DNA of 58,942 nt, counting the filler, from Dugesia japonica (taxonomy: Eukaryota), in assembly GCA_001938525.1 (NCBI GenBank). It is 5 parts of 5 records of this genome, joined end to end, with 100 filler letters (N's around TTAATTAATTAA, not from the genome) between each part and the next. Parts side by side here need not be neighbours in the genome. Positions count along the whole stretch, not along the records: positions 1 to 22,406 come from MQRL01626953.1; 4 more parts are not named here. One strand, 5' to 3'. How positions within the stretch are numbered: position 1 is the first letter of the stretch; each line of letters opens with the position of its first letter. The translations under genes were made by a program, and so were the position numbers. Under the pieces are notes generated by a model. That model saw only the letters and a list, made by a program, of their open reading frames with translations, searched no databases and was not told the origin of the DNA. Positions 4,826 to 5,249 of the stretch are shown here, in pieces.

Positions 4826-5249
4826 CTAAATTTTTTCAATCAAATTGATTAAATCTGAAATAATGTTATTCAGATATCCTTGATAATACAAATTTTGAAG
4901 CCCTAATATTACTAGATTTCCTGTTGAGAACACATTTACTCATAAAGAGTCATATTTTACAAGTCTTAGACCAGGAAATAACTCTGGTTCGAACCAACAG
5001 TTGACTATTCTTGCTAATTTATACAAGTTTTTTAAAACTCTTATATTTACGAAAATAAGTAGCTATTGTAATTGTAAATTCTTTGTATTATAGGGTTCAA
5101 ATCATTTTTCTACATTTTTCTGATCTAAAGTACATAACTGTAAATTTATCACTTTTGACTTTAAATTGACATGGTTTTCCTGTAGGAAAGCTTATTTTCT
5201 TTGTTACTTCTTGTGTCATTTCACCTCTGTAACTAATATTGGTTATCAT
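4826..5249 (-). pseudogene. Compact, intronless, divergent TBP-like (TATA-binding protein fold) gene, decayed
   Basis: MITNISYRG...KPCQF...TVMYFRSEKCRKM [frameshift] ...NLYKLARIVNCWFEPELFPGLRLVKYDSL*VNVFSTGNLVILG...EKI*. This matches the TBP repeat signature YEPELFPGL...IFxSGKxVxTG. Confidence 0.85.

Follow-up and report, generated by a model that had tools for sequence, protein, structure and literature searches.

A fossil mini-TBP gene in Dugesia japonica and its relatives among Maverick-type genes: candidate late-promoter factors for a TATAAAC box

Why would a mobile element carry a TBP of its own? The question is raised by a damaged TBP-like gene in a 58,942-nt stretch of Dugesia japonica DNA (five joined parts of assembly GCA_001938525.1, hereafter the window), an accumulation of decayed mobile elements. 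A sequence-only reading had placed this gene in a Maverick-like segment, and proposed that such a lineage carries a basal transcription factor that redirects or competes with host TFIID. The cellular TBP core comprises 180 aa with ~80% identity across eukaryotes, and we know of no observation of Maverick particles or Maverick gene regulation. The timing of Maverick gene expression, and the question whether Mavericks still act as viruses, can here be addressed with a single small protein and a site of 7 bp, the copy in the window itself being only a fossil.

The remnant occupies positions 4826–5249 on the minus strand, with an ATG at 5249 and a terminal stop at 4826–4828 by six-frame translation, and the peptide motifs previously quoted for the two TBP half-repeats are present. 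It is divided into a 5′ piece encoding the N-lobe (5103–5249, 49 codons) and a 3′ piece encoding the C-lobe in another frame (4826–5098). In tblastn searches of the window with the four closest relatives, the intact proteins P0003–P0006 (149–152 aa, on contigs of 0.7–1.4 kb), the alignment falls into two pieces in two frames (5249–5103 and 5098–4829), with E values of 5e-40 to 1e-45 that place the remnant far above chance; identity is 45–61% to residues 1–49 in the 5′ piece and 62–69% in the 3′ piece. As a protein query, the 3′ piece retrieved the same four proteins at 69–77% identity, so that intact copies, for which a search had been suggested, were found. Read with X at the stop, it matches Pfam TBP (PF00352) at E 7.4e-05 and 22.9 bits, which is the curated cut-off, and the 5′ piece matched no Pfam family. 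The frame changes between 5103 and 5098, where ~11–13 codons are missing relative to the four relatives. The single frameshift region described earlier therefore stands, but the single stop does not, as two in-frame stops lie within the 3′ piece (5063–5065 and 4940–4942). Likewise, the length of about 140 aa given before is that of the damaged copy, owing to the codons absent at the frame change, and not that of the gene, for which the intact median is 150 aa; the description as intronless agrees with an alignment to the relatives that requires no intron. The feature is very likely a dead copy of a ~150-aa mini-TBP gene, a Maverick-family mini-TBP pseudogene.

Relatives of this gene are numerous. 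A profile of P0003–P0006 yielded 399 proteins at E ≤ 1e-5, and among the 120 of these matches listed the sources are ENA, Logan, JGI and MGnify, with none from NCBI or UniRef. Among 120 long matches listed, one is a 357-aa fusion, against the single domain of the 150-aa form. A profile of 110 sequences gave 57 clusters (50% identity) at E ≤ 1e-30 among 1.84 billion, the 111 aligned members have the 150-aa median given above, and all four intact relatives match Pfam TBP at E 2e-12 to 2e-13. No family member was found in IMG/VR, where only three distant TBPs were detected; phage records gave no match to the family, and GTDB genomes a single match of 22 residues that was judged to be chance. The top matches in a protein atlas are unnamed TBP-domain clusters of 144–193 aa, with near-absent taxon data and a recognition score below threshold. 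The dN/dS ratio is 0.07–0.37 in nine of nine chosen pairs of intact loci, showing that the family is under purifying selection. Two trees of 77 and 58 rows were built from sequences chosen by hand among those fetched, using quick searches and SH-aLRT support only. In both, the remnant is sister to P0003/P0006 (support 99 and 91), and the mini forms make a single clade (99) within a wider clade that includes longer forms (100); locus L018 has a very long branch. The longer TBP-like proteins (P0318–P0384, 155–190 aa) keep helices H1 and H2, share the signature of Pro-for-Phe, Arg, Met and Asn with the mini forms, and join them in one clade with support of 100.

The genes adjoining intact copies were read from 16 metagenome contigs of 1.1–5.8 kb that carry a mini-TBP gene, whose best segments are 41–49% identical to P0006 and which are thus more distant than P0003–P0006. 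A Maverick ATPase, integrase or protease lies beside mini-TBP in six of the 16 loci, the remaining ten having only unassigned genes. In five (L001, L002, L004, L005 and L006), a packaging ATPase follows downstream on the same strand; that of L001 matches Pox_A32 at E 6e-07, and the other four are 77–82% identical. Beyond the ATPase, L001 carries a pX-tailed gene, with a weak Adeno_PX match (E 0.005), and then an rve integrase (E 4.7e-10), a similar integrase start being visible by eye in L006. L010 has an adenain-type protease upstream (Peptidase_C5, E 5.6e-06), together with an upstream ORF without a Pfam match that we take to resemble a capsid C-terminus. Intact mini-TBP relatives thus sit among Maverick/adintovirus-type genes. 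The proposed linkage to such genes accordingly holds for ATPase and integrase and, in L010, for protease; pPolB was seen neither in these contigs, which are short, nor in the window with an insensitive Pfam scan. No TFIIB was found among 16 ORFs scanned with Pfam, or by eye in the 16 loci, and no polymerase gene was seen in them. A conserved gene of ~170 aa, with no Pfam match and an acidic N-terminal motif reminiscent of DEDD exonucleases, directly precedes mini-TBP in L009–L013 and L015, and in L009, L010 and L012 has a TATAAAC box before it.

In the window, the remnant reads inward from a non-coding, repeat-rich arm (5377–8783) made of 21/41/63-bp, 31-bp and 27-bp tandem arrays, over most bins of which the summed contig depth is of the same order as over the TBP gene. 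The arm ends at a likely right Maverick terminus on the plus strand (8784–8800), where a 14-bp end motif is followed by ACT, giving ACTACT at 8795–8800, and gypsy integrase homology stops; this is the ACTACT terminus named in the sequence-only reading, with no contig in the public DNA runs joining the TBP gene to it. Vertebrate Mavericks most commonly end in (AGT)2//(ACT)2, according to sections of PMC8097293. The 14-bp motif occurs four times in the window against 0.03 expected, the other copies being at 103–116, 12925–12941 and 33391–33404, and all four have the right-end orientation, no left end or target duplication being seen within the window. A second ACTACT end, at 12936–12941, interrupts a gypsy protease region, so that the ends at 8800 and 12941 each adjoin an interrupted gypsy gene. 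Because the copies of the motif diverge within ~30 bp inward, they look like different families; the one match to the motif in IMG/VR lies in a phage-like contig of 47% GC and was taken as chance. Two of the four read CTAG, as in Helitrons. Neither CTAG is followed by T, and the possibility that these are Helitron ends was considered and dismissed.

On its other side, the remnant is followed by a small Cys-containing ORF (4336–4643, minus strand), with a possible ~47-nt GT-AG intron, no protein-atlas match, only Sina_ZnF in Pfam (E 0.055), and a DNA depth about tenfold below that of the TBP gene. Direct repeat blocks stand on either side of the remnant and this neighbour, 3359–4221 being a second copy, ~71% identical by self-BLAST, of the block at 5395–6126. 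Small accessory genes with apparent introns of 38–48 nt (GTTTGA...TTAG) recur at 2610–3180 (plus strand), at 4336–4643 and at 3000–4067 of L001, and a similar intron junction is visible by eye in L001–L003; Mavericks would not usually be expected to have spliced genes, and no splice joints for these introns appeared in the RNA runs. In two public D. japonica DNA runs, 48,807 and 58,257 contigs fell on 2590–8800, mostly 90–99% alike, with a summed depth over the TBP gene (which is not a copy number) far above that over 2590–4670. This pile and its uneven depth indicate many diverged copies whose left neighbours are not constant.

A second Maverick remnant lies elsewhere in the window, at 31721–33404. 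Its broken packaging ATPase (32223–32761, minus strand) was found by tblastn with the ATPases of the five loci named above (E 1e-33 to 1e-37), and is preceded by a TATAAAC box 35 nt before its ATG (32790–32796, minus strand). A small basic gene follows the ATPase, with another such box 34 nt before its ATG (32163–32169, minus strand), and after it comes the remnant of a pX-tailed, PZ-like gene (31721–31918, minus strand; tblastn with L001, L002 and L006 proteins, E 5e-08 to 2e-07). The copy of the 14-bp end motif at 33391–33404 (plus strand) lies ~640 bp from the ATPase start. The whole is probably an internally deleted Maverick.

These data bear on where the fossil gene came from. A processed pseudogene of host TBP or TRF2 would be intronless and broken, as the remnant is; yet over both pieces the remnant is 59–69% identical to intact 149–152-aa mini-TBP proteins, against at best 40% over 45 residues among 119 canonical TBPs, to which its 5′ piece has no significant match, and it shares the deletions of the mini family. 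Constraining it with 10 eukaryotic TBPs made the tree 157 log units worse (p-AU 3.4e-43), refuting host TBP as the source in a sampling from which TRF2 was absent, and an origin from either host gene now has a vanishingly small probability. The phylogeny thus keeps the remnant apart from cellular TBP and within the mini clade. A further question is whether its segment is a Maverick arm at all, or whether another repeat family picked up the gene or the gene stems from the insertion of a large DNA virus, with the end motif belonging to a different element. No pPolB, capsid, integrase or ATPase was found in the remnant's own segment (1–8800) by Pfam or tblastn; a Pfam search of 131 window fragments also returned no pPolB or capsid, in a scan that is insensitive, as it missed the known ATPase fragment. 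It is evident from depth and loose ends that the sequences flanking the gene differ, on either side, in other copies, and four right ends without a left end, two of them reading CTAG, would suit a different element. Set against this, the relatives adjoin ATPase, integrase and protease, the identical end motif recurs 640 bp from a Maverick ATPase remnant, and two ACTACT ends lie at interrupted gypsy genes, neither CTAG having the T. A large DNA virus is further disfavoured by the empty IMG/VR search and by BFVD viral TBPs that are only 10–19% identical. We regard a non-Maverick segment as decidedly unlikely, and the earlier attribution of the gene to a Maverick lineage is upheld by the linkage of its relatives and, for the TBPs sampled, by the tree.

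What the intact protein could do was approached through its predicted fold. The model of P0006 (pLDDT 95.3) was superposed on TBPs from human, yeast, plant and archaea, with 147 of its 150 residues aligned (Z 12.9–13.3 (13.2), rmsd 2.5 Å, 18–24% identity), which shows mini-TBP, as modelled, to be a complete two-lobed TBP saddle; giant-virus TBPs gave a weaker structural match. It shares this saddle with cellular and archaeal TBP (PF00352, with the paralogues TBPL2/TRF3 and TLF/TRF2), but differs in having ~150 instead of ~180 aa and no N-terminal extension. By column counts over 111 members, three of the four intercalating phenylalanines are kept (F41 100%, F101 99%, F117 100%), as are the first DNA-face asparagine (N4), the C-lobe proline (P102) and the C-lobe acidic pair (E97 95%, E99 100%). 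The first intercalating phenylalanine, in the N-lobe, is replaced by P26 (99%) and the second asparagine by S72 (98%), and the other changed near-invariant residues are R47 (99%), M49 (100%), R105 (99%), C113 (100%) and N115 (100%). Mini-TBP consequently departs from the canonical set of four phenylalanines and both asparagines, and the modelling of the DNA-binding face that had been suggested gives a predicted saddle with a more polar face at near-invariant positions. It also departs from the canonical 180-aa core with basic helix H2: the N-lobe has lost 10 residues, and the linker that holds H2 is down to 20 residues from the 32–33 of TBP (12 fewer), leaving a 4-residue helix in the model.

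The consequences of these changes can be judged from cellular TBP. In sections of PMC7221094, the C-lobe glutamate pair is given as the TFIIB contact, and the basic patch of N-lobe H2 as the site that binds TFIIA, TAF1, Mot1 and Brf. The C-lobe reads the 5′ half of the box and the N-lobe the 3′ half, with I194, V203 and L205 determining specificity at base 2 (passages of PMC1636458 and PMC3142196), and the yeast variant TBPm3 selects against C at positions 6–8 (a passage of PMC1636458). R105, C113 and N115 appear from the alignment to occupy the I194, V203 and L205 positions, C113 being placed by strand register; as the C-lobe is altered at all three TBPm3 positions, the match of residue to base is not clean.

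A candidate target for this face was found in the 16 loci. Their gene strand carries 41 copies of TATAAAC and the opposite strand only two; TATAAAA, TATAAAG and TATAAAT have no strand bias. At 32 of the 41 sites an ORF-opening ATG lies 20–45 nt after the box, the best of 105 letter permutations (20% for the others), and any ATG lies 30–38 nt after it at 31 of 41, against a background of 20%. The close relatives L001–L003 supply 24 of the 41 sites, and eight of the 16 loci, on short contigs, have no plus-strand site; counted per lineage, the 30–38-nt spacing is seen in 8/9, 2/3, 2/3, 4/4, 1/1, 1/2, 1/2 and 0/2 sites, L013 having neither of its two sites at this spacing. The box stands 32–37 nt before the ATG in all five ATPase genes. 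Its distance to the ATG is tight (mode 34–37 nt), whereas that to the previous stop ranges from −22 to +293, and the box often overlaps the upstream stop codon. Over the whole window, six of 20 TATAAAC sites have an ATG at 30–38 nt, which is near background. The mini-TBP genes themselves mostly lack the box, with 15 of 16 having none within 100 nt and L013 having one at 77 nt; canonical TATA is present within 100 nt of six of the 16 and CCAAT in seven, and no canonical TATA was seen by eye at the window remnant. A search of IMG/VR for relatives of the ATPase, and with them for Mavericks that lack mini-TBP, found none.

Expression was followed in public RNA runs, and RNA over the ORF that is apparently sense was indeed found, coming from other host copies in one study. 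Three oligo-dT runs of that study (X22–X24) cover the mini-TBP ORF, at 20–80x in X23 and X24, with depth falling to ≤4x at 5325–5365 and 4587–4709; a run from another study (X21) gives about 1x or less. First mates lie 2–6-fold more often on the plus strand, which denotes sense RNA if the usual stranded protocol was used. Since the reads are mostly <90% alike to the window, they derive from other copies. At the frame-change point, 19 and 22 reads break off, and most reads differ inside the second stop codon, which indicates that the transcribed copies are free of those breaks. The flanking minisatellite is covered as deeply as the ORF, so transcription may be passive. A loose end in a T run at 4778 (X10) was considered as a poly(A) site and rejected, as the genome itself has a T run there. 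In X24, 19 reads depart from the window sequence at 5312, a short way before the TBP start, and the portion that no longer matches contains a TATAAAC pointing away from TBP, which suggests a head-to-head gene in other copies, comparable to the divergent gene in L001–L003.

It is, on balance, probable that intact mini-TBP serves as the late-gene promoter factor of its element, acting at TATAAAC with host TFIIB and Pol II. Host machinery would read the mini-TBP gene early, several of these genes carrying canonical TATA and CCAAT in place of the box. The protein is then predicted to bind TATAAAC before packaging and other virion-module genes, where its rebuilt, more polar DNA face would read the C at box position 7 that a yeast TBP variant disfavours. 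The kept glutamates may dock host TFIIB, recruiting Pol II to the virion module, and loss of H2 would keep the protein beyond the reach of TAF1, TFIIA, Mot1 and Brf1. The net result would be an early-to-late switch made of one gene. Of the two roles first proposed, redirection fits this better and competition with TFIID less so, given the lost N-lobe surface for TAF1, TFIIA and Mot1, the retained TFIIB glutamates, and the elements' own promoter-like box. The broader proposition, a widespread Maverick/adintovirus clade with a viral late programme built on a 150-aa saddle that is rewired for TATAAAC, free of Mot1 and TAF1, and dependent on host TFIIB, has about an even chance of being correct.

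Other roles for a Maverick-borne mini-TBP have to be considered. The box is one base off consensus TATA, and its reader could be host TBP or some other factor; alternatively, given how many sites overlap the preceding stop codon, the box could be a 3′-end signal. Mini-TBP would then have a different role, for instance in binding AT-rich terminal repeats during replication or packaging, for which the AT-rich arrays that fill the arms would offer sites. A signal of that kind is at odds with the tight spacing to the ATG and the loose spacing to the stop, and a role outside transcription would have no need of TFIIB-contact glutamates that are 95–100% conserved, so we think this unlikely. Those same glutamates, with the saddle fold, would suit a decoy that damps host transcription, either against host TBP/TFIID at TATA boxes or as a sink for TFIIB, and a passage of PMC3142196 gives TLF/TRF2 as a case in which a factor can be sequestered and TATA promoters thereby repressed. 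This we consider distinctly unlikely, as the DNA face is altered at invariant positions, away from TATA-reading residues, the elements carry a distinct positioned box, and transcripts of copies turn up in host RNA runs that seem ordinary. A dedicated promoter factor under purifying selection and a box positioned before virion-module genes suit the needs of a virus with an early–late cascade, whereas a pure transposon needs neither.

The closest functional parallel is the vTBP of beta- and gammaherpesviruses (KSHV ORF24, EBV BcRF1) with its TATTWAA late promoter, described in sections of PMC12529657, which mini-TBP would resemble in being a viral TBP-like factor whose DNA face is polar, in the TATA variant that precedes late genes, and in the use of host Pol II. 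ORF24 is a large multidomain protein of a six-protein complex that keeps all four phenylalanines; the glutamates for TFIIB are absent from it, and it clashes with that factor. Mini-TBP, by contrast, is a bare 150-aa single-domain saddle with those glutamates and not a member of the vTBP system, BcRF1 showing only weak fold likeness (E 0.01). The TBPs of Nucleocytoviricota, which include the best BFVD matches, are likewise virus-borne with a diverged N-lobe regulatory surface, but parts of PMC7221094 report variable glutamate positions (about 40% conserved) and a nearly constant company of viral TFIIB and polymerase. Mini-TBP does not belong to these TBP/TFIIB pairs: its glutamates are almost completely conserved, no TFIIB or polymerase gene was seen in the 16 short loci, and identity is only 10–19%.

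With Mavericks, Polintons and adintoviruses, as covered by passages of PMC8502044 and PMC8097293, the mini-TBP elements share the A32-type ATPase, rve integrase, adenain-type protease, pX-tailed gene and (ACT)2 end. Vertebrate Mavericks have eight core genes, TBP not among them, and their genes are intronless, as against the apparent short introns here. The statement that TBP is atypical of the Polinton core set is too strong, as a 2021 figure legend on viruses with adintovirus-like PolB (PMC8502044 and its preprint), the one relevant mention found, uses 'TBP' as a gene label. The passages of PMC8502044 seen contain no analysis of a TBP protein, family or promoter box, a term search did not find 'TBP' in the main text of further Polinton papers, and no link between TATAAAC and Polintons was found in the openly accessible papers searched. 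If the proposed function is true, Mavericks gain a defined late trigger, which would be the smallest TBP-based switch yet and a natural orthogonal pair of TBP and promoter. Mini-TBP can also be regarded as a natural experiment on TBP, exposing which parts are removable and which residues set specificity.

Several other features of the window merit mention. To the left of the TBP gene, at about 1095–2590, lies a piggyBac-type element (DDE_Tnp_1_7, E 2e-40), with ends that by eye are flanked by TTAA. An apparently intact host gene at 28090–28717 (plus strand) has an S4 domain (E 1e-08) and introns of ~45 nt, and we take it to resemble IMP3. Finally, a large decayed gypsy-type element at 42055–49640 (plus strand) retains zf-CCHC, RVT_1, RNase H and integrase, with long unassigned ORFs ahead of pol and, behind it, a hydrophobic ORF (49010–49640).
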